Assembly: GCA_036677365.1 (NCBI GenBank)
Contig: JAVBWN010000012.1
Span: forward strand, 64,001-128,000
Origin: Acholeplasma sp.
GTDB taxonomy: Bacteria; Bacillota_I; Bacilli_A; Acholeplasmatales; UBA5453
Length of the DNA stretch: 64,000 nt
Reading direction: 5' to 3'
Made by a program: the position numbers. Below are positions 27,001 to 36,000 of this stretch, in pieces; position 1 is the first letter of the stretch; each line of letters opens with the position of its first letter.

Positions 27001-30000
27001 AGGTAGTTTCCACTGCTTTCCCAATGCAAGAGGGACTTTTTGATTATGTAATTTTCGATGAAGCTTCTCAAATGTTTATTGAAAGAGCTGTCCCAGCAAT
27101 TCATAGAGCCAAAAGAGTGATTATCGCAGGTGATTCTAAGCAATTAAAGCCTTCGTCCACATTTCAAGCTAGATTAGCGGAATCTGAAGAACTAGACGAT
27201 GATGAGAATGTAACTAATCTTGAATTAGAAGCATTGGACAAAGAAAGCTTGCTAGAAATGGCAAAAGAAAAATATACAAGCAAAATGATTCAATTTCATT
27301 ATCGATCAGAACATGAAGAGTTAATCGAATTCTCAAGTGCAGCTTTCTATGAAGGAAAACTCTTTTTCGCTTCCAAAATAAATGGTGGAAAGTGGAAAAA
27401 ACCGATTGAGATAGTTAAGGTCAGCGATGGGCTTTGGACTTCTGAAAACACTAACCCTGTTGAAGCAGAATCTGTTGTAAAAATCGTGTCGCAATTACTT
27501 AATAAACGAAAGTTCAATGAAACGATAGGTATAATCACATTTAATATTAAACAAAAAGAACTTATACAAGACATGCTTCTAGAATCGGATAATAGACTAA
27601 TTAATTTGGAACTTAATCGAGTAAATCCACAGACTGGCGACGATGAAGGTCTTTTTGTTAAGAATATAGAAAATGTTCAAGGGGATGAACGTGATATCAT
27701 CATATTTTCAATTGGGTATGCTAAGAATAAAGATGGTAGAGTTAGAGCTCAATTTGGGCTCCTCAATCAATCTGGTGGAGAAAATCGTCTTAATGTAGCA
27801 ATTACGCGTGCAAAGAAAAAAATCATTGTGGTAAAATCTATTGAATCAGATGAATTACAAGTAAATGAACATATTCCGGGACCAACAAGACTAAAACAGT
27901 ATTTGAAATTTGTCGAACTGGTGCATAGCCAAAAAAGTGAAGATAAAAAGATTTTACTAAACTCGATTTGTGATTCAAGTTCTATATTTCATGAAAAAAT
28001 TCAAACTTTTGATTCACCATTTGAATTGGAAGTATTTCAAGAAATATCTAGGATTAAACCATCGAATATTGAACTTAGAAACCAAGTCAACGTAGGTGGA
28101 TTTCTAATTGATATTGCACTATACGACAAAGATTTAAACAAATTCATTCTAGGCATAGAATGCGATGGTTATCAGTATCATTCCAAACCTGAAGATGTTG
28201 AAAGGGATTTCCATAGACAACAATATTTGGAAAGTAGAGGTTGGCAAATTCACAGAATCATCAGTACAAATTGGTTTAGAGATAAGTTATCTGAAGTAGA
28301 AGTTGTGAAAACTTTAATGGGTTCGACTGTATCCTAGTGGCCTAAGCGAAAAAGACTTACGAATGCTTTTCTTATGTACACATAATTGCTAATAGATAAA
28401 TAGAAAACCTAGGTTTGTTAATATGGTTGTTTTTCTATAGACGATATTTTATATGGAATTTTTAATAAATCTTTATAAGTAACATAATAAATCAAAAATA
28501 CATTTGAAAGAGAGTATTTTATGTGAGATGATTTTACCGTATTTTGATGTACTAAAAAATCGTTGTATAGATATCAAGTTAATGATAAAATTTAAGTAGT
28601 ATTCTATAATTTGAAATAGTCATCTGTAACAGTTTTATAAAATATTGGATGGGGAGGTATCGATATGTCATATGCTTTTTATTATATGTTAACACCGAGA
28701 TGCTTGCTTAACTGTGGGTATTGTTTCAGAGATACTAGTAAAGAATCCCTAGAAAGAGAACTTACACTCGAAGATAAGAAAAAAGTTTTGACCTCTTTAG
28801 TAGAGGTTTTTTATGCTAGAAAAATTACACTATCTGGTGGTGAACCCACCATTACTGGTGGTGTAGTACTTACTCAATTTCTAGATTTAATGAGTCACGT
28901 TAAAGAACTTAAATTGAATCACCCAACACTTAGAATCGAGTTGTTAACGAATGCTATTTTATTAGATAGAGATGTGCTCGAAAAATTGGTGGGCATTGTC
29001 GATAGAATCACAATAACATTGGACACAATTAATGAAGAAATCTTAGAGAAAATTGGCCGAAACACTGGAAAATATAACAACTATTTAAGTCGGTTTAAAC
29101 AAAGAATGATGGATATGAACGACTTAGGATTTGAAACAAAAATTCATTCAGTGATTACACCAGTTAATTACGATTATCTAGAAGAATTAGCACAATATAT
29201 CAAAGATAATAACCACTTATTCAAAATTAATCGTTGGAAGTTTTATCAGTATATGACATACGATGATCCAGTTAAAGATGCCATTTATCAAATAGATGAT
29301 AATAAGTTTGATATTATGTGCAAAAAAATCTCAAGTATCATAGATGGCACTGGCATTGATGTTACATTCAAGGATAATAAACTGATGTTAGATTCTATGC
29401 TGAATTTGACTCACTATGGATGCTTAGAACACGTGACCATATTGGATGGCATTAAAAGAAACTTTGTATCAAAGCCGATTTGGTTATATCCCAATCTAAT
29501 GGAATTATTAAATGATATTCATTTACCAATAGAAAAACTGAACCAGTATCATAGCTATCAAGATGAGTAAACAAGTCTTATTCACTATGGATATAGATTG
29601 GGTCAGCGAACCTGTGATGAAAATCACAATTGATTATATTAAACAATTAAACATACCTTTTCTTATTTTTCAAACTCACATTAGCGAAAGCCTAGTTAAA
29701 GAAACGTCACCATTGATTACATTTGAACTTCATCCAAATTTTTGTGATGGTAGTGATCATGGTAAAACAACTAAAGACGTTATCGAAACCATTTGTAAAT
29801 TTCCTCATAAAGGTCAATCGATTCGCGCACATAAATACTTTATGCCTGATGATGCAATCAAACACATTGATCAGTTTGATTTCAAATATACATTGAATAA
29901 CTTTACAAATTTGAATTATCAAAAACCTGTGAAGATTACTGATAAACTAACAGAGATTCATACATTTTTTGAAGATGGCATTTACTTGAAAAATAAACAA

Positions 30001-33000: not shown

Positions 33001-36000
33001 CCAGCAGTTATCAAAGACAATATAGATTGTTTTAGTCACTTATATAAACAGCAGTTTATTGCTCCCTACGATACCGTCAATGAAGCGGTTAAAAAAATTG
33101 CTTATTGGATCGATCACTTGGATGAGTATAAGGAAGCATCAAAATTAGCTATCGATTTTTCTATACAGTTCTTGTCTGAATTAGAAAGAAAGCGTCTTTA
33201 TGAGGAAATAACATGTTAGGACTTGTCGTCTTAGGTACTAGGCCTGAAGCAATCAAATTAATACCATTAATTCAAAAGTGCTTTAGTGAAGAAATTCCAC
33301 TAAAGATTCTTTCGACAGAACAACACTTTGATGCAGTTCAAACTTTATTTTCAGATAATCATATCAAAATCGATTATCGGTTAGTTCCAAAAAAATACCC
33401 AGACCTTGTATCTCAAACAACAGATTACTTATCGGCAATAAATTCACTCATTAACGATGAAAATTTCGACTTTATTATTAGCCAAGGTGATACAATTTCA
33501 GCTTATGTAGGTATGTTATATGCCTACTTGAGCAAAATAGATTATCTTTACATTGAATCGGGTTTAAGAACAAATGATTTTATGAATCCATTCCCCGAAG
33601 AAGGTCTAAGAACCATGATGAGTCACATTGCAAGAATGAATTTTGTACCTACAAAGCAAGAACAGACCAATCTCGAACTTGAAGGTATTGATAACAATAA
33701 AATAAAGATTGTCGGAAACACAGGTATAGATTATCTCATTAACCATATGAGTAATCAAAATGTTAACACAGTTCCGAAAAGTGTTTTGATTACAATCCAT
33801 AGAAGAGAGAACTGGCCACATTTACATGACTTTTTCTATAGGTTAGCTGAGTATGCAAAAAAACGCTCAGATGTTACATTCGTTTATCCTATACACTTTA
33901 ACCCTGAGATTCAAAGAAAAGCTTATCAATTATTATCTAATATACCTAATATTAGGATTGAAGAACCATTGGTTTCTGAGAAATTTTATACTGTATTATC
34001 ATCATCTGAAATGATTATTACGGACAGTGGAGGTGTACAGGAAGAGGCGACCTATTTAAATAAAAAAGTCGTCATCATACGTGATAAAATCGAAAGACTA
34101 TTTTTGAGTAAGTGTATCAAACAAGTCTCAATAACGGATAAACATTTATTTATTACGATTAATGATCTGCTAGAAATACCTCTAGTAGAAAAACCAAATA
34201 ATCTAGTGTATGGCGATGGATTTGCATCAGAAAGAATAGTTGAATGGATAAAAGAGGAGTATCGAAGATGAATATAACAATCATAGGTTTGGGTTATATT
34301 GGGTTCCCAGTAGCGATAAAATTAGCGGAAGCTGGTTTTCACATTCATGGTTATGATATCGATAGTCAGAGAATACAGGATATAGAAACTGGTAATTTCA
34401 ACATACAAGAACCTGAACTATATGAAAGATATCATGCAGTAAAATCAAATTTATCCATATCGACTAAATTGGTTAAATCAAGTACATATATTGTTACAGT
34501 TCAGACACCAGTAGATCAAAATAATAAAGCCGATGTTAGTTATGTAAATAGAGCACTTCAAGACATTGGGAAGTTTTTGTCAAAAGGTGATTTGGTTATT
34601 TTAGAGTCCACTGTCCCACCATATTCAAATGAGGTTTTTCATGCGTATCTTTCTGAGATTTCTCAAATAAATATCAATGATTTCGATTATGCATACTGTC
34701 CTGAAACGATACAACCCGGCAATGTTTTTTATGAATTGTCAACCAATCCGAGAGTAATTGGAAGTATTAATGAGCGTGCCTTTAAGCGTACTGAGTTGAT
34801 ATATAGCAAACTCACCAAAGGTAAGATTACGCATACGAACTACATAACAGCTGAGCATGTCAAAATCATGCAAAATGCATATAGAGATTACGAGATTGCT
34901 TTTGCAAACGCATTATCGATTTATTGTGACCAACATCGAATGAATGTGTTTGAACTTATTGGTCTAATTAATCAACACCCAAGAGCGAAAGTGTTGAATC
35001 CTGGCGTTGGCGTTGGTGGTCATTGCTTACCCGTTGATACGTTATTCATTATTGAGAAATCGAGCTTCGAGCCAATCATATTTTCAAGAAACATGAACAA
35101 CCATAAAACAGACTATGTCGTTGAAAAAATAATGAGTCAAGCACCAAAAAAAGTTATCCTTTTTGGTGCTACTTATAAACCGAACTCTGATGATTTAAGA
35201 CATTCACCTAGCATTGAAATAGCAAATCAGTTGATAAGTATTAATATTGAGGTTCTCTTTTGTGAACCCAATATAAATCAAGAGTTTATCTATGGTATTA
35301 AGAACATAAAGTTTGATGAAGCAATTAAGATAAAATCTCTTAAAGTCATCACTCAAAAGCACGATGTTTTCATCAAGGGATATGACAATTTTGGAAAGAT
35401 TGATTTTATTGACTTTGTTGGACTAGATTCTTAAATAGGTTGAAGATTAGCAGCCAAACATCTTTAAAAACTAGGATAATAGACACAAAGAACAATTTAA
35501 ATAGCAAGTCTATAAAAATTTAAATACAGCGATAAGATCAAATTTGGAATAAAAAATTTTTAATAAGTATAGGAGATATTATGTTATGAAAAATATATTA
35601 GCATGTTCTTATTTATATTATTCTCAATGATATTGTTTGCATGCAACAGCTCGGAAACGAATAATGAAGTATTTGCAGTTGTTCATTACGATAATAGTAT
35701 GTGGAGTTCGACCAATGGTAAAATAATATTTGGTACATCTTCATTCTCTAGTTCTAAGCCTGTTTATTTTTATAACGAGAAAAAGAATGCGATTCAACTT
35801 CAGCCATCAAAAAATGGGAATATAATTAGCAATATTGATGCAGAATGGGAAAAGATTTTTTCAATTGAGTCGATAGGAATGCAACAAGTTTATTTTCTTA
35901 ATAATGTCACAAGTAAATATGAACTCATTAATGAAAATGAAATAGAGGTTTATAAAATTACAATACACACAGAAGCATCTTCAACGATTATTATTAATGA

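Follow-up and report, generated by a model that had tools for sequence, protein, structure and literature searches.

Organization of the operon

At positions 28665-35434 of the window, i.e. the whole 64,000-nucleotide stretch of the Acholeplasma sp. contig that was analysed, six + strand ORFs follow one another with successive overlaps of 8, 4, 38, 7 and 28 nt, as in the overlapping six-gene operon of an earlier note on this DNA. The first encodes a viperin-fold radical-SAM enzyme of 301 residues (28665..29570, +; Pfam Radical_SAM, 2.2e-21), and the second a WbmS-like, CE4-type (beta/alpha)-barrel hydrolase of 238 residues and putative de-N-acylase (29563..30279, +; Pfam WbmS-like, 7.9e-30). 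The third (30276-32135, +) specifies a 619-residue fusion, in which an N-terminal HAD-IIB (Cof-type) phosphatase-like domain (30276..31025, +; Hydrolase_3, 1.4e-26) precedes a GT4-fold glycosyltransferase, GTa (31026..32135, +; Glycos_transf_1, 6.8e-17). The set is completed by a second GT4 glycosyltransferase of 373 residues (32098..33219, +; Glycos_transf_1, 3.5e-19; Glyco_transf_4, 1.3e-9), a non-hydrolysing UDP-GlcNAc 2-epimerase (WecB) of 352 residues (33213..34271, +; Epimerase_2, 2.8e-68) and an NDP-sugar 6-dehydrogenase of 396 residues, closest to UDP-ManNAc dehydrogenase (WecC; 34244..35434, +; three UDPG_MGDP_dh domains). All six ORFs have significant Pfam matches and are, therefore, real genes, chance ORFs being ruled out.

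A GGGGAGG ribosome-binding site precedes the ATG at 28665. In the 327-nt gap 5' of the operon, a promoter-like site, ATGATA-17-TATAAT (28582..28610, +), matches at 10 of 12 positions; it is a weak candidate, since shuffled versions of the region contain 46.9 such sites on average and the real sequence 39. An Rfam search of 27500-36500 gave no match.

The radical-SAM enzyme

The cysteines of the CxxxCxxC motif are C13, C17 and C20, and the 301-residue protein has no second cysteine cluster. The pVip/viperin family is its best match in both PADLOC (1.8e-30) and NCBIfam, and in the PDB viperins are found from 7.7e-11, against 2.9e-4 for MoaA and a weak match to BlsE; these values, and the NCBIfam scores given below, agree with those reported earlier. 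When the AF2 model (pLDDT 95.3) is compared with the PDB by Foldseek, the best 28 matches are all viperins (E ~1e-16, TM 0.72-0.76), which rank ahead of SuiB, DesII, BlsE and MoaA, the viperin fold being matched including its C-terminal extension. The designation ‘viperin-family’ in the earlier note, therefore, stands as far as fold and best match are concerned, but, judged by sequence score, membership in the curated viperin family (viperin_w_prok, NF038283) fails at the cut-off, with 99.1 bits against 180 (MoaA, 66.4 bits), and signature residues are replaced.

The family has the SGGEP motif in common with viperins and maintains their basic residues (38 of the 39 sequences have K or R at K120, and the residues corresponding to R194, K220 and K247 never vary), whereas N77 is replaced by Y, H79 by M, N222 by H and Y302 by M, L or F, the C-terminal RGGxYxW motif is also replaced, and Y/M, H161, K236 and H296 are family-specific invariants. 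The loss of the signature positions implies that the substrate may not be an NTP. The family is sharply bounded, with 15 matches at E<=1e-30 among 1.84 billion representatives; viperin_w_prok is the best family for the 33 readable sequences among the 38 next-nearest proteins listed, 4 of the 33 passing its cut-off. The enzyme is viperin-like by fold and best family match, and forms a separate family.

The hydrolases and sugar enzymes

The WbmS-like protein scores 104.6 bits in Pfam (cut-off 27) and matches WbmS (3hft) at 1.5e-8, the value given previously. Its AF2 model (pLDDT 92.9) retrieves 3hft at 1.2e-12, followed by CE4 deacetylases and ArnD at ~3e-5, and D10, D12, H57, R88, H90, E137, D138 and H171 are invariant in 36 sequences. 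The HAD domain scores above the cut-off for HAD-SF-IIB (52.1 against 41.8 bits) and below that for the Cof subfamily (89.4 against 137), and among solved structures it is closest to 3r4c and to BT4131, a sugar-phosphate phosphatase. Its motif I, which varies between clades, is D-I-G-N-T in the window and D-x-G-N-T in the window's clade; the second Asp is absent there, which makes phosphatase activity in this clade uncertain.

The family profile of GTa has PimB' (3oka) as its best PDB match, at 2e-26, then BshA-like proteins (1.7e-14) and TarM, with sucrose-phosphate-synthase-like chains also among the matches. The second GT4 matches MshA (7qsg) at 5.4e-7 as a single sequence and 7mi0 (2.4e-15), MshA (1e-11) and BshA (2.9e-9) as a profile. 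The likeness of the GT4s lies mostly in the donor-binding half, so that the acceptor is poorly indicated. WecB exceeds the equivalog cut-off of TIGR00236 (247.1 against 210.15 bits), and the dehydrogenase exceeds that of TIGR03026 (316.4 against 189.8) while remaining below that of the WecC equivalog NF008286 (282.4 against 459).

Distribution, fusions and mobility

The module recurs in 48 loci across about ten phyla, in which the radical-SAM gene always lies beside the WbmS-like gene (48/48), GTa and GT4 being each present in 47. The claim that the same six genes form a conserved core was not upheld: WecB is adjacent in 32 of the 48 loci (absent there in 16) and WecC in 26, being missing from all six clade-C loci, so the uronic acid is not universal to the module, and most versions contain a second phosphatase. 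The latter is HAD_2 in clades A and C and a ComB-like protein (PF04029) in 29/48 loci, neither partner being found in the window's own genome; ComB-like enzymes act on 2-phospho-hydroxy-acids. Three gene orders correspond to three clades of the radical-SAM tree (support 100/100 for A, 96/88 for C and 93/54 for B), and fusion partners and domain order shift from clade to clade: HAD-GTa in the window and in its nearest copy, L050; GT4-HAD in clade B; a single 1294-residue HAD-GTa-GT4-WecB protein in L005; and a single 496-residue HAD_2-radical-SAM protein in L002 (P0019). These fusions argue for functional coupling of the enzymes.

Intracellular-symbiont lineages account for 23 of the 36 clade-B loci. 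MsbA-like ABC exporters or, in L012 and L048, ABC-2 permeases flank 17/48 loci, the ABC exporters beside many symbiont copies being orthologues with 48-59% identity between Chlamydiota, Rickettsiaceae, Burkholderiaceae and Francisellaceae. The absence of membrane or polymer-export genes, as claimed earlier, thus applies to the window and the clade to which it belongs, whereas it fails for the symbiont clade.

The six genes are a horizontally transferred accessory operon. That they travel together between unrelated flanks was borne out by the 48 loci, and DNA homology to L050 is confined to 28654-35211, ending at the operon edges; their accessory nature agrees with the radical-SAM profile matching none of 60 relatives, 9 of them from the same genus; and the IMG/VR contig noted before for a serine recombinase has two large ones directly upstream of the module. 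The previous count of 76 protein clusters, including the HAD-radical-SAM fusion P0019, was reproduced, but marks the limit of a word-based search and should be read as at least 76; the profile of the WbmS-like partner yields 315 clusters at E<=1e-10.

The host and its defence genes

In the host genome (99.86% completeness) no MraY/WecA-family gene and no PBP were found, and the host appears to be wall-less. Another contig carries a Wzy-type polysaccharide locus of the conventional kind, complete with a priming transferase and a WecB of its own; its presence favours a module product other than an ordinary surface glycan, a role that the earlier note had left open. Defence-type genes (Pfam, PADLOC) make the entire window a defence island; they include a Hhe/ProA-like helicase-nuclease, a type I RM system, Abi_2 and NERD. 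Elsewhere, the defence association is uneven: a complete Wadjet system adjoins the module in L005, and Dnd/Pbe and AbiE lie near it in L024, with strong PADLOC matches in 4/12 clade A/C loci (12/73 flank ORFs) and matches in 24/122 ORFs of a clade-B sample, ~14 of them generic, all these being raw counts without a background rate. The second phosphatase, the flanking exporter, the symbiont lineages, the wall-less host with its separate polysaccharide locus and the window-wide defence island are new with respect to the earlier note.

The proposed pathway and its alternatives

The product would be a modified nucleotide or sugar, as already proposed. There is about an even chance that the mobile operon supplies a pathway, complete in itself, for making a small amino-uronic-acid glycoside, not a polymer, and such a glycoside is probably undescribed so far. 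WecB and the WecC-like dehydrogenase would convert UDP-GlcNAc to UDP-ManNAc and then UDP-ManNAcA; the two retaining GT4s would add ManNAcA and a second sugar to a phosphorylated acceptor made by every host; the HAD-IIB domain, fused to either GT, would take the phosphate off and release the product, along the lines of sucrose-phosphate and mycothiol synthesis; and the WbmS-like hydrolase would remove an N-acyl group. The radical-SAM enzyme would tailor a phosphate-bearing substrate by radical chemistry, probably through a dehydration of the viperin type; a nucleotide, for example CTP or UTP, is the likeliest substrate, and the UDP-sugar the next. A phosphate-bearing substrate or intermediate is suggested by the second phosphatase that travels with the module and by the conserved viperin basic residues. 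A small acceptor is preferred over a polyprenol-linked glycan because, among solved structures, the GTs come closest to PimB', MshA and BshA, because no priming transferase, flippase or polymerase is found among the Pfam matches of the operon, and because of the separate Wzy-type locus and the lack of MraY/WecA-family and PBP genes in the host. Where the module lies in symbionts, the product probably leaves the cell through a dedicated ABC exporter. As to its role, a small molecule with antiviral or antagonistic action is perhaps to be favoured, from the neighbourhood only, because the operon sits in a long defence island.

A lipid-linked glycan or a glycolipid would be just as plausible a cargo for an MsbA/PglK-type exporter, and a tentative alternative, of limited probability, is that the cassette makes such an envelope glycoconjugate: the GT4s would attach sugars to a lipid of the membrane, in the way that PimB' acts on phosphatidylinositol mannoside, the WbmS-like enzyme would deacetylate the head group, the radical-SAM enzyme would tailor the sugar and an ABC half-transporter would flip the product outward. 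That GTa has a glycolipid enzyme as its best solved relative is in keeping with this scheme, as are weak NCBIfam matches to GlcNAc-phosphatidylglycerol synthase, TuaC and EPS GT4s, the transporters beside 17 loci, the exposure that membrane glycolipids would have in a wall-less host, and the ties of the WbmS founder and of ManNAcA to the chemistry of O-antigen, ECA and teichuronic acid. However, exporter, flippase and priming transferase are absent from the window's operon and from clades A and C, the module proteins match no membrane-protein family (Pfam families only), two soluble-type phosphatases fused to GTs and to the radical-SAM enzyme better suit phospho-metabolite chemistry, and the genome already holds a complete polysaccharide locus.

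It is unlikely that the operon is a true prokaryotic-viperin antiphage system, in which the radical-SAM enzyme would make a 3'-deoxy-3',4'-didehydro-NTP chain terminator in the cell and the sugar genes would be accessory, e.g. for self-protection or phage nucleic acid modification. The best-matching family, the fold with its C-terminal extension, the viperin-like next-nearest proteins among the matches listed and the defence island all point this way, but the score falls short of the viperin cut-off, the signature residues are replaced, the remaining five proteins have no PADLOC match, a triphosphate effector would be destroyed by the phosphatases that adjoin the radical-SAM enzyme or are fused to it, and obligate intracellular bacteria with reduced genomes have kept the module next to an exporter, which is unlike an abortive antiphage device. 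A cytoplasmic protectant or cofactor-like glycoside (a compatible solute or thiol-type redox buffer precursor), made by a mycothiol/bacillithiol-like route (GT4, phosphatase, deacetylase) with the radical-SAM enzyme in place of the later ligase step, would accord with MshA and BshA being two of the closest solved structures for both GTs, with the pairing of phosphatase and deacetylase-like enzyme and with ComB-like chemistry on a malate- or glycerate-like acceptor, but is very unlikely, as the module lacks a cysteine ligase and any other enzyme that would add a thiol, the host genome has no inositol-phosphate synthase, and a housekeeping gene set would be neither so rare (0/60 relatives; 3/251 Rickettsiales) nor adjacent to recombinases and defence genes.

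Comparison with known systems

As in the UDP-ManNAcA supply for ECA, teichuronic acid and capsule, the module combines an equivalog-level WecB with a dehydrogenase closest to WecC, but polyprenol-phosphate transferase, flippase and polymerase are missing from it, and any MraY/WecA-family gene from its host. With mycothiol and bacillithiol synthesis (MshA, phosphatase and MshB; BshA and BshB) it would share retaining GT4s, a UDP-HexNAc donor, a small, partly phosphorylated acceptor, and dephosphorylation and de-N-acetylation after glycosyl transfer. The deacetylases of those pathways are LmbE-type, whereas that of the module has a WbmS/CE4-like fold; furthermore, the module has two GTs, an added radical-SAM enzyme, no cysteine ligase and, probably, ManNAcA as the donor sugar. 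Sucrose-phosphate synthase/phosphatase pairs likewise bring together GT4 and HAD-IIB in one protein or in neighbouring genes, but the module varies fusion partner and domain order by clade, lacks the second Asp of HAD motif I in the window's clade and adds tailoring by the radical-SAM and deacetylase-like enzymes.

Radical-SAM steps are also found in nucleoside-antibiotic clusters, i.e. those of tunicamycin (TunB), blasticidin (BlsE) and polyoxin (PolH/PolJ), which share with the module the classes of radical-SAM enzyme, phosphatase, GT, deacetylase, UDP-HexNAc-modifying enzyme and ABC exporter. Of these, BlsE, whose substrate is a uronic-acid nucleoside, matches the module's enzyme weakly in sequence and fold; the homology seen does not extend past the superfamily, the module has no acyltransferase, Nudix enzyme or dehydratase, and its hosts are not actinomycetes.

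The Undecim Cluster of Wolbachia phage WO is, according to PMC9203015, a laterally transferred island common to Wolbachia, Rickettsia and Cardinium, with glycosyltransferase, radical-SAM and export functions like those of the module, a GT-fused radical-SAM protein linked to methylation, and a role given there as unknown. From sequence searches, the two appear not to be homologous, because a clade-B radical-SAM enzyme had no match at 1e-10 in plasmid and phage collections, which may lack pREIS2 and phage WO, and because the family occurs in 3/251 Rickettsiales genomes.

Finally, prokaryotic pVip (NF038283) and eukaryotic viperin share with the module's enzyme the fold, the C-terminal extension, CxxxCxxC, SGGEP and the equivalents of K120, R194, K220 and K247; the enzyme differs from them in its sub-cut-off score and in having family-specific invariants in place of N77, H79, N222, Y302 and RGGxYxW, and, while viperins are encoded singly or beside a nucleotide kinase, it sits in a glycosyltransferase/phosphatase operon.

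Organization and transcription of the operon

Between positions 28665 and 35434 of the window, six open reading frames (ORFs) follow one another on the + strand with successive overlaps of 8, 4, 38, 7 and 28 nt. The 327-nt gap upstream of the first one contains the ribosome-binding site GGGGAGG and a promoter-like site, albeit a weak one; no Rfam element was found near the operon. The genes encode, in this order: (i) a radical-SAM enzyme (rSAM in the following; 301 aa; Pfam Radical_SAM, 2.2e-21); (ii) a WbmS-like protein (238 aa; PF22537, 104.6 bits vs a gathering cut-off of 27); (iii) a fusion of a HAD-IIB domain with a GT4-fold part, here termed GTa (619 aa; Hydrolase_3, 1.4e-26, and Glycos_transf_1, 6.8e-17); (iv) a second GT4 enzyme (373 aa; Glycos_transf_1, 3.5e-19); (v) WecB (352 aa; 247.1 bits, above the TIGR00236 equivalog cut-off of 210.15); and (vi) an NDP-sugar dehydrogenase closest to WecC (396 aa). 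The latter clears only the subfamily model of NDP-sugar dehydrogenases (TIGR03026, 316.4 bits vs 189.8) and stays under the cut-off of the WecC equivalog (NF008286, 282.4 bits vs 459), so that it is called WecC-like on the basis of its best match and its adjacency to WecB. All the repeatable figures of an earlier note on this DNA (PADLOC, NCBIfam and PDB matches, the WbmS structure 3hft, protein clusters and IMG/VR contig) were the same on recomputation.

DNA nearly identical to window positions 28400-35600 is found in runs of 8 studies that are labelled as sediment, outdoor and bioreactor metagenomes. In one metatranscriptome library, contigs of 183-239 nt lie on the genes of rSAM (28995-29216), the HAD-GT fusion (31035-31217) and WecB (33433-33660), i.e. 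on three of the six operon genes, and short contigs also lie on flanking genes; DNA carry-over being possible, they hint at transcription weakly at best. A read joint in X5 that skips 29327-39192 was dismissed, as just 23 letters lie on one side of it. Directly 3' of the operon, a 157-aa ORF (35603-36076) has a lipoprotein-like start, with a hydrophobic stretch ending in L-F-A-C; it matches no family, and nothing corresponding to it lies beside the module in other loci.

The radical-SAM enzyme

rSAM is viperin-like but, judged by the curated test, no viperin, as it scores 99.1 bits against the prokaryotic viperin family (viperin_w_prok, NF038283; cut-off 180) and 54.3 bits against TIGR04278 viperin (cut-off 450). 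The likeness rests on the fold and on the best family match; the viperin-family membership given in the earlier note is overstated, since the curated cut-off is missed. In the AlphaFold (AF2) model, which was built from 39 homologues (pLDDT 95.3), the predicted match with viperins extends over the whole length, comprising the partial TIM barrel and the viperin C-terminal extension. The best 28 Foldseek matches in the PDB are all viperins (E ~1e-16, TM 0.72-0.76, ~300 aligned columns), followed by SuiB (4e-12), DesII (2.6e-10), BlsE (1.8e-9) and MoaA (2.4e-9). That rSAM is a MoaA (GTP 3',8-cyclase) was rejected on account of this fold rank, below viperins, SuiB and DesII, of a score of 66.4 bits against a cut-off of 284, and of the lack of the C-terminal [4Fe-4S] triad: in the 39 sequences of the family the only invariant cysteines are the three N-terminal ones of the CxxxCxxC motif (C13, C17 and C20), with no second, C-terminal cluster as in MoaA.

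The rSAM family is sharply bounded. Among 1.84 billion representative proteins, the family profile finds 15 at E<=1e-30; five full-length representatives score at least 339 bits, below which the scores fall to 138 bits and then to at most 118. Of the 38 next-nearest proteins, all the 33 listed have viperin_w_prok as their best NCBIfam family (95-305 bits), and four of these exceed the viperin cut-off. Matches in the protein atlas are with generic 'radical SAM' clusters only; no fused form longer than 527 aa was found, which is weak evidence.

The rSAM family was aligned with the four cut-off-passing prokaryotic viperins (pVips), and residues of viperin are given in mouse numbering, those of rSAM in its own. 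The conserved active-site residues of viperins, with a role in CTP binding, are N77, H79, K120, S124, R194, K220, N222, K247, Y302 and the C-terminal GGxYxW motif. Besides CxxxCxxC and SGGEP, the rSAM family keeps S124, the K120 equivalent (K/R in 38 of 39 sequences) and, as invariant residues, the equivalents of R194, K220 and K247. Substituted are N77 (by Y), H79 (by M), N222 (by the invariant H161), Y302 (by M, L or F) and the C-terminal RGGxYxW, which is replaced by an invariant (Y/F)H296; the four pVips retain the N-x-H, K-x-N, S-Y-L and GG motifs. Invariants specific to the rSAM family are Y6, M8, H161, K236, Y275 and H296. A docking study names S124, K220, N222, K247 and K299 as pocket residues (PMC11970327). 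The assignment of K236 as the equivalent of K299 was dropped, because the pairwise HMMER alignment is shifted in the C-terminal region with respect to the multiple alignment with the pVips. In our reading, the shell of the active site would be of the viperin type and would take a substrate bearing a polyphosphate, and the specificity pocket would have been re-made.

The accompanying enzymes

The structure model of the WbmS-like protein (pLDDT 92.9) matches Bordetella WbmS (3hft; 1.5e-8 by sequence, 1.2e-12 and TM 0.76 by fold) and, more distantly, CE4 deacetylases, the deformylase ArnD and chitobiose deacetylase (~3e-5, TM ~0.5). Its invariant Asp, His and Glu residues (D10, D12, H57, H90, E137, D138 and H171) fit a putative metal-dependent de-N-acylase.

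With family profiles, the nearest solved relative of GTa is PimB' (2e-26; next matches 1.7e-14), and that of the second GT4 is 7mi0, followed by MshA (1e-11) and BshA (2.9e-9), the scores sitting mostly in the donor-binding half. The nearest relatives of both belong to the retaining GT4 enzymes whose acceptors are small molecules or lipids rather than polyprenol-linked chains. A match with PF20706, the GT4 family of conflict systems (26.2 bits vs a cut-off of 26), is not taken as membership, since the aligned part (residues 270-309 on profile positions 275-314 of 385) is just the shared GT4 core motif.

The HAD-IIB domain has different partners in different clades: in the window it precedes GTa as the N-terminal part of the fusion, in the clade designated B below it forms the C-terminal part of the second GT4, and in Clostridia and clade C it is free-standing. 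Most versions of the module have a second phosphatase, which is either a HAD_2 protein beside or fused to rSAM in clades A and C (the 496-aa protein P0019 of locus L002 being the fused form) or, in 29 of the 48 loci, a ComB-like protein (PF04029) encoded convergently, 3' of the WbmS-like gene. In the window's clade HAD motif I reads D-x-G-N-T in place of D-x-D-G-T, and neither a HAD_2 nor a ComB-like partner is present in the window's genome, so that phosphatase activity is uncertain for this operon. In one compared locus (L005, 11612-15496), a single ORF of 1294 aa joins HAD-IIB, GTa, GT4 and WecB.

Distribution and mobility of the module

The loci compared comprise 48 from a scan of one genome per species and one from IMG/VR; as one of them (L049) has no family member, 48 family loci remain. 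A WbmS-like gene is near that of rSAM in 48/48, GTa in 47/48 (the miss being at a contig end), the second GT4 in 47/48 (the miss being a decayed copy), WecB in 32/48 and WecC in 26/48. Three gene orders are found, each of which corresponds to one side of a branch of the rSAM tree: order A, rSAM-WbmS-HAD/GTa-GT4-WecB-WecC, in seven copies (the window, Clostridia, a 'Mollicutes' MAG and the IMG/VR contig; support 100/100); order B, WecC-WecB-GTa-GT4::HAD-rSAM-WbmS, in 36 loci (93/54); and order C, rSAM-HAD_2-WbmS-HAD-GTa-GT4-WecB-like, in six loci of Bacteroidota and Thiotrichaceae (96/88).

The module spans about ten phyla, and transfer between phyla is shown by the pairing, in the rSAM tree, of Cardinium with a Rickettsia endosymbiont (99/85) and of Rickettsiaceae with Mycoavidus (100/99). 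The IMG/VR copy (L050), which is the closest to that of the window, shares DNA homology (65% identity) over no more than a stretch that begins 11 nt ahead of the rSAM start and ends inside the last gene, which indicates that the six genes are the transferred unit. Consistent with the accessory status and the recombinase-linked copy reported in the earlier note, none of 60 relatives of the window's genome carries the rSAM family, and in L050 the module follows two large serine recombinases; no phage structural genes were seen in the 15 kb examined. DNA comparison with five genomes of the same genus gave short patches of 63-94% identity and no information on synteny.

Among the side observations, decayed copies are found in L041 (7465-11625), where rSAM, the WbmS-like gene and GTa are each in fragments, and in L047 (8313-11650), where GT4 and rSAM are truncated. 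The MAG that contains L041 also has an intact copy, L014. A 7381-nt contig of a Pacearchaeota (DPANN) MAG (L046) carries a clade-C module with ~1.3 kb of extra DNA and three small ORFs between HAD and GTa; it is probably mis-binned, since its protein scores are almost those of Parabeggiatoa (L025). Among the source names of WbmS-like partners (P0268, P0335 and P0292) are 'Candidatus Tisiphia', a Thorarchaeota MAG and a plasmid of 'Candidatus Symbiodolus clandestinus', and these names suggest plasmid carriage and a still wider spread of the clade-B module.

Exporters and symbiont hosts

In clade B the module is flanked by an ABC half-transporter (ABC_membrane and ABC_tran) or, in L012 and L048, by an ABC-2 set, which contradicts the earlier statement that distant relatives have no export genes. 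An exporter flanks 17 of the 48 loci, two of the 17 being ATPase-only ORFs at some distance. The exporters of Chlamydiota, Rickettsiaceae, Mycoavidus, Caedibacter and Francisellaceae share 48-59% identity with each other, which argues that they travel with the module. Going by record titles, 23 of the 36 clade-B loci are from lineages of intracellular associates of eukaryotes, namely Chlamydiota (12 loci), Rickettsiales/Holosporales and kin (five), Mycoavidus (two), Caedibacter, Cardinium, Francisellaceae and Legionellaceae (one each). Genome reduction in Chlamydiota, Rickettsiales, Cardinium and Mycoavidus has left the module in place; in free-living hosts it lies in defence islands. The remaining 13 loci belong to Myxococcota, Longimicrobium, Phycisphaerales, Rhodocyclaceae and unclassified Pseudomonadota.

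Relation to surface-glycan synthesis

The host genome (1.97 Mb, 99.86% complete) has neither a MraY/WecA-family gene nor a PBP transpeptidase, so that the host is probably wall-less, which fits the 'Mollicutes' MAG as the nearest named relative of the operon. That the operon is a Wzy- or ABC-dependent surface polysaccharide locus was rejected, because a priming phosphoglycosyl transferase, a polymerase or ligase, and a flippase or an ABC-2 exporter are all absent from the six genes and their immediate neighbours. The sole priming sugar transferase of the genome (Bac_transf) is on another contig, in a classic polysaccharide locus. That locus also encodes a Wzy_C protein, GT2/GT1 enzymes, an acetyltransferase, a pyruvyl transferase and FnlA/B/C-like enzymes, one of which is a second WecB. 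The operon is separate from ordinary surface-glycan synthesis. The Wzy-type locus (L052, C16:52000-71999) is a full one and adjoins two tyrosine recombinases.

The defence setting

Along the whole window (1-64000), defence-type genes follow one another on a single strand: NERD (1761-3134), DUF6602 (6909-7661), Abi_2 (8367-9122), a metallophosphoesterase (9219-10718), a Hhe/ProA/PDC-S37-like helicase-nuclease with a REase_MTES_1575 domain directly upstream of the operon (24297-28337), type I RM hsdM/S/R (40842-46760), AAA_25 (46877-48046), GIY-YIG (48423-48953), a 1505-aa SF1 helicase (51125-55642) and NERD-UvrD (61326-63089). The window has no tRNA genes that could mark island ends, and there is no integrase among the scanned ORFs.

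Two further gene groups lie within this run. A four-gene cluster on the + strand (36229-40283), with the operon on one side and the type I RM genes on the other, encodes two proteins (362 and 376 aa) that match nothing in Pfam, NCBIfam or PADLOC, a 102-aa ORF and an Hsp70/actin-fold ATPase (38440-39978; HSP70 2.6e-51, far under the DnaK cut-offs), and is a candidate for an uncharacterised defence system. The stretch 55642-61319, 3' of the SF1 helicase, encodes two proteins (717 and 371 aa) with no assigned family and a ClpB-like AAA_2 ATPase (58919-60745) overlapped by a radical-SAM/Fer4_12 protein of 197 aa (60726-61319), which is the second radical-SAM gene of the island and is unrelated to that of the operon.

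Around other copies the picture is uneven. PADLOC matches at E<=1e-12 are found for 12 of 73 flanking ORFs of clades A and C, in 4 of 12 loci, these being raw counts with no background rate. They include, in L005, a complete Wadjet (JetABCD), which ends ~2.7 kb upstream of the module, and two PDC candidates after it (PDC-S27 and PDC-S01); in L024, Dnd/Pbe and AbiE; and in L050, PDC-S02. For clade B, 122 of the 280 flanking ORFs of at least 150 aa, taken at random and representing 32 loci, were compared at the same threshold; 24 matched (again raw counts with no background rate), about 14 of them generic (ABC, ankyrin, TPR, IstB), and specific matches occur in 8 of the 32 loci. In the window's clade it is the neighbourhood alone that suggests a role in defence. 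That the operon is an already described anti-phage system was rejected, since rSAM, which matches pVip, is the sole component recognized by PADLOC 2.0, the other five proteins matching no family at E<=1e-3.

Proposed chemistry

The combination of GT4, HAD phosphatase and deacetylase follows the same logic as the synthesis of mycothiol and of sucrose phosphate, which would imply a phosphorylated acceptor. In a small-glycoside pathway of this kind, WecB and the WecC-like enzyme would supply UDP-ManNAc and UDP-ManNAcA, and the acceptor would lose its phosphate after glycosylation. As the cassette is found alike in a wall-less sediment bacterium, in Chlamydiota and in Myxococcota, the acceptor would have to be a universal metabolite. 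An inositol phosphate is hinted at by the relationship with PimB' and MshA, but the host genome has no inositol-1-phosphate synthase, which weakens this candidate and makes an inositol phosphate made de novo unlikely in this host. For the substrate of rSAM, a nucleotide-derived aglycone is ranked first, on the grounds of universality, the basic residues kept from viperin and the phosphatase fused to rSAM, and a UDP-sugar second; this is a ranking of candidates, not a demonstration.

A more far-reaching version of the pathway would have the cassette make, by viperin chemistry, a diffusible nucleoside analogue, which would found a new class of glycosylated chain-terminator pro-drugs, instead of an intracellular triphosphate. 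Here rSAM would dehydrate a nucleotide, the attached phosphatases would strip the phosphates, the two GT4 and the deacetylase-like enzyme would add an amino-uronic sugar to the nucleoside, and, in symbionts, the dedicated ABC exporter would release the product. We regard this as improbable. If it were true, the pathway to such a pro-drug would be spread by horizontal transfer among symbionts that live inside the cells of protists, insects and fungi, and would be seated in defence islands of free-living bacteria. The pro-drug would then be a candidate for the compound by which symbionts protect their hosts against viruses.

Comparison with known systems

No related gene set was found in the literature searched, and the nearest in print is the Undecim Cluster of phage WO (WD0611-WD0621), a laterally shared symbiont island described as having glycosyltransferase, radical-SAM and export genes (PMC9203015). 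The two appear to be analogous, not homologous, since the clade-B rSAM has no match at 1e-10 in plasmid and phage collections, which may not include the Undecim reference records; that they are one and the same module is unsupported by this search and by the sporadic occurrence of the rSAM family in Rickettsiales (3 of 251 genomes). The accessible portion of the viperin preprint of Shomar et al. (10.1101/2023.09.13.557418) has no mention of glycosyltransferase-linked relatives.

Identification of the product would widen the reaction scope of the viperin fold and possibly yield a new class of natural products, and the module is a testable candidate for an influence of symbionts on their hosts or on the viruses of these. 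To our knowledge, viperin-type enzymes have so far been described as stand-alone makers of antiviral chain-terminating nucleotides. The rSAM family forms a separate branch of this fold, recruited into a conserved, mobile and probably glycoside-building pathway, in which the fusions, the second phosphatase and the exporter point to another chemistry and to another product, which may be secreted.
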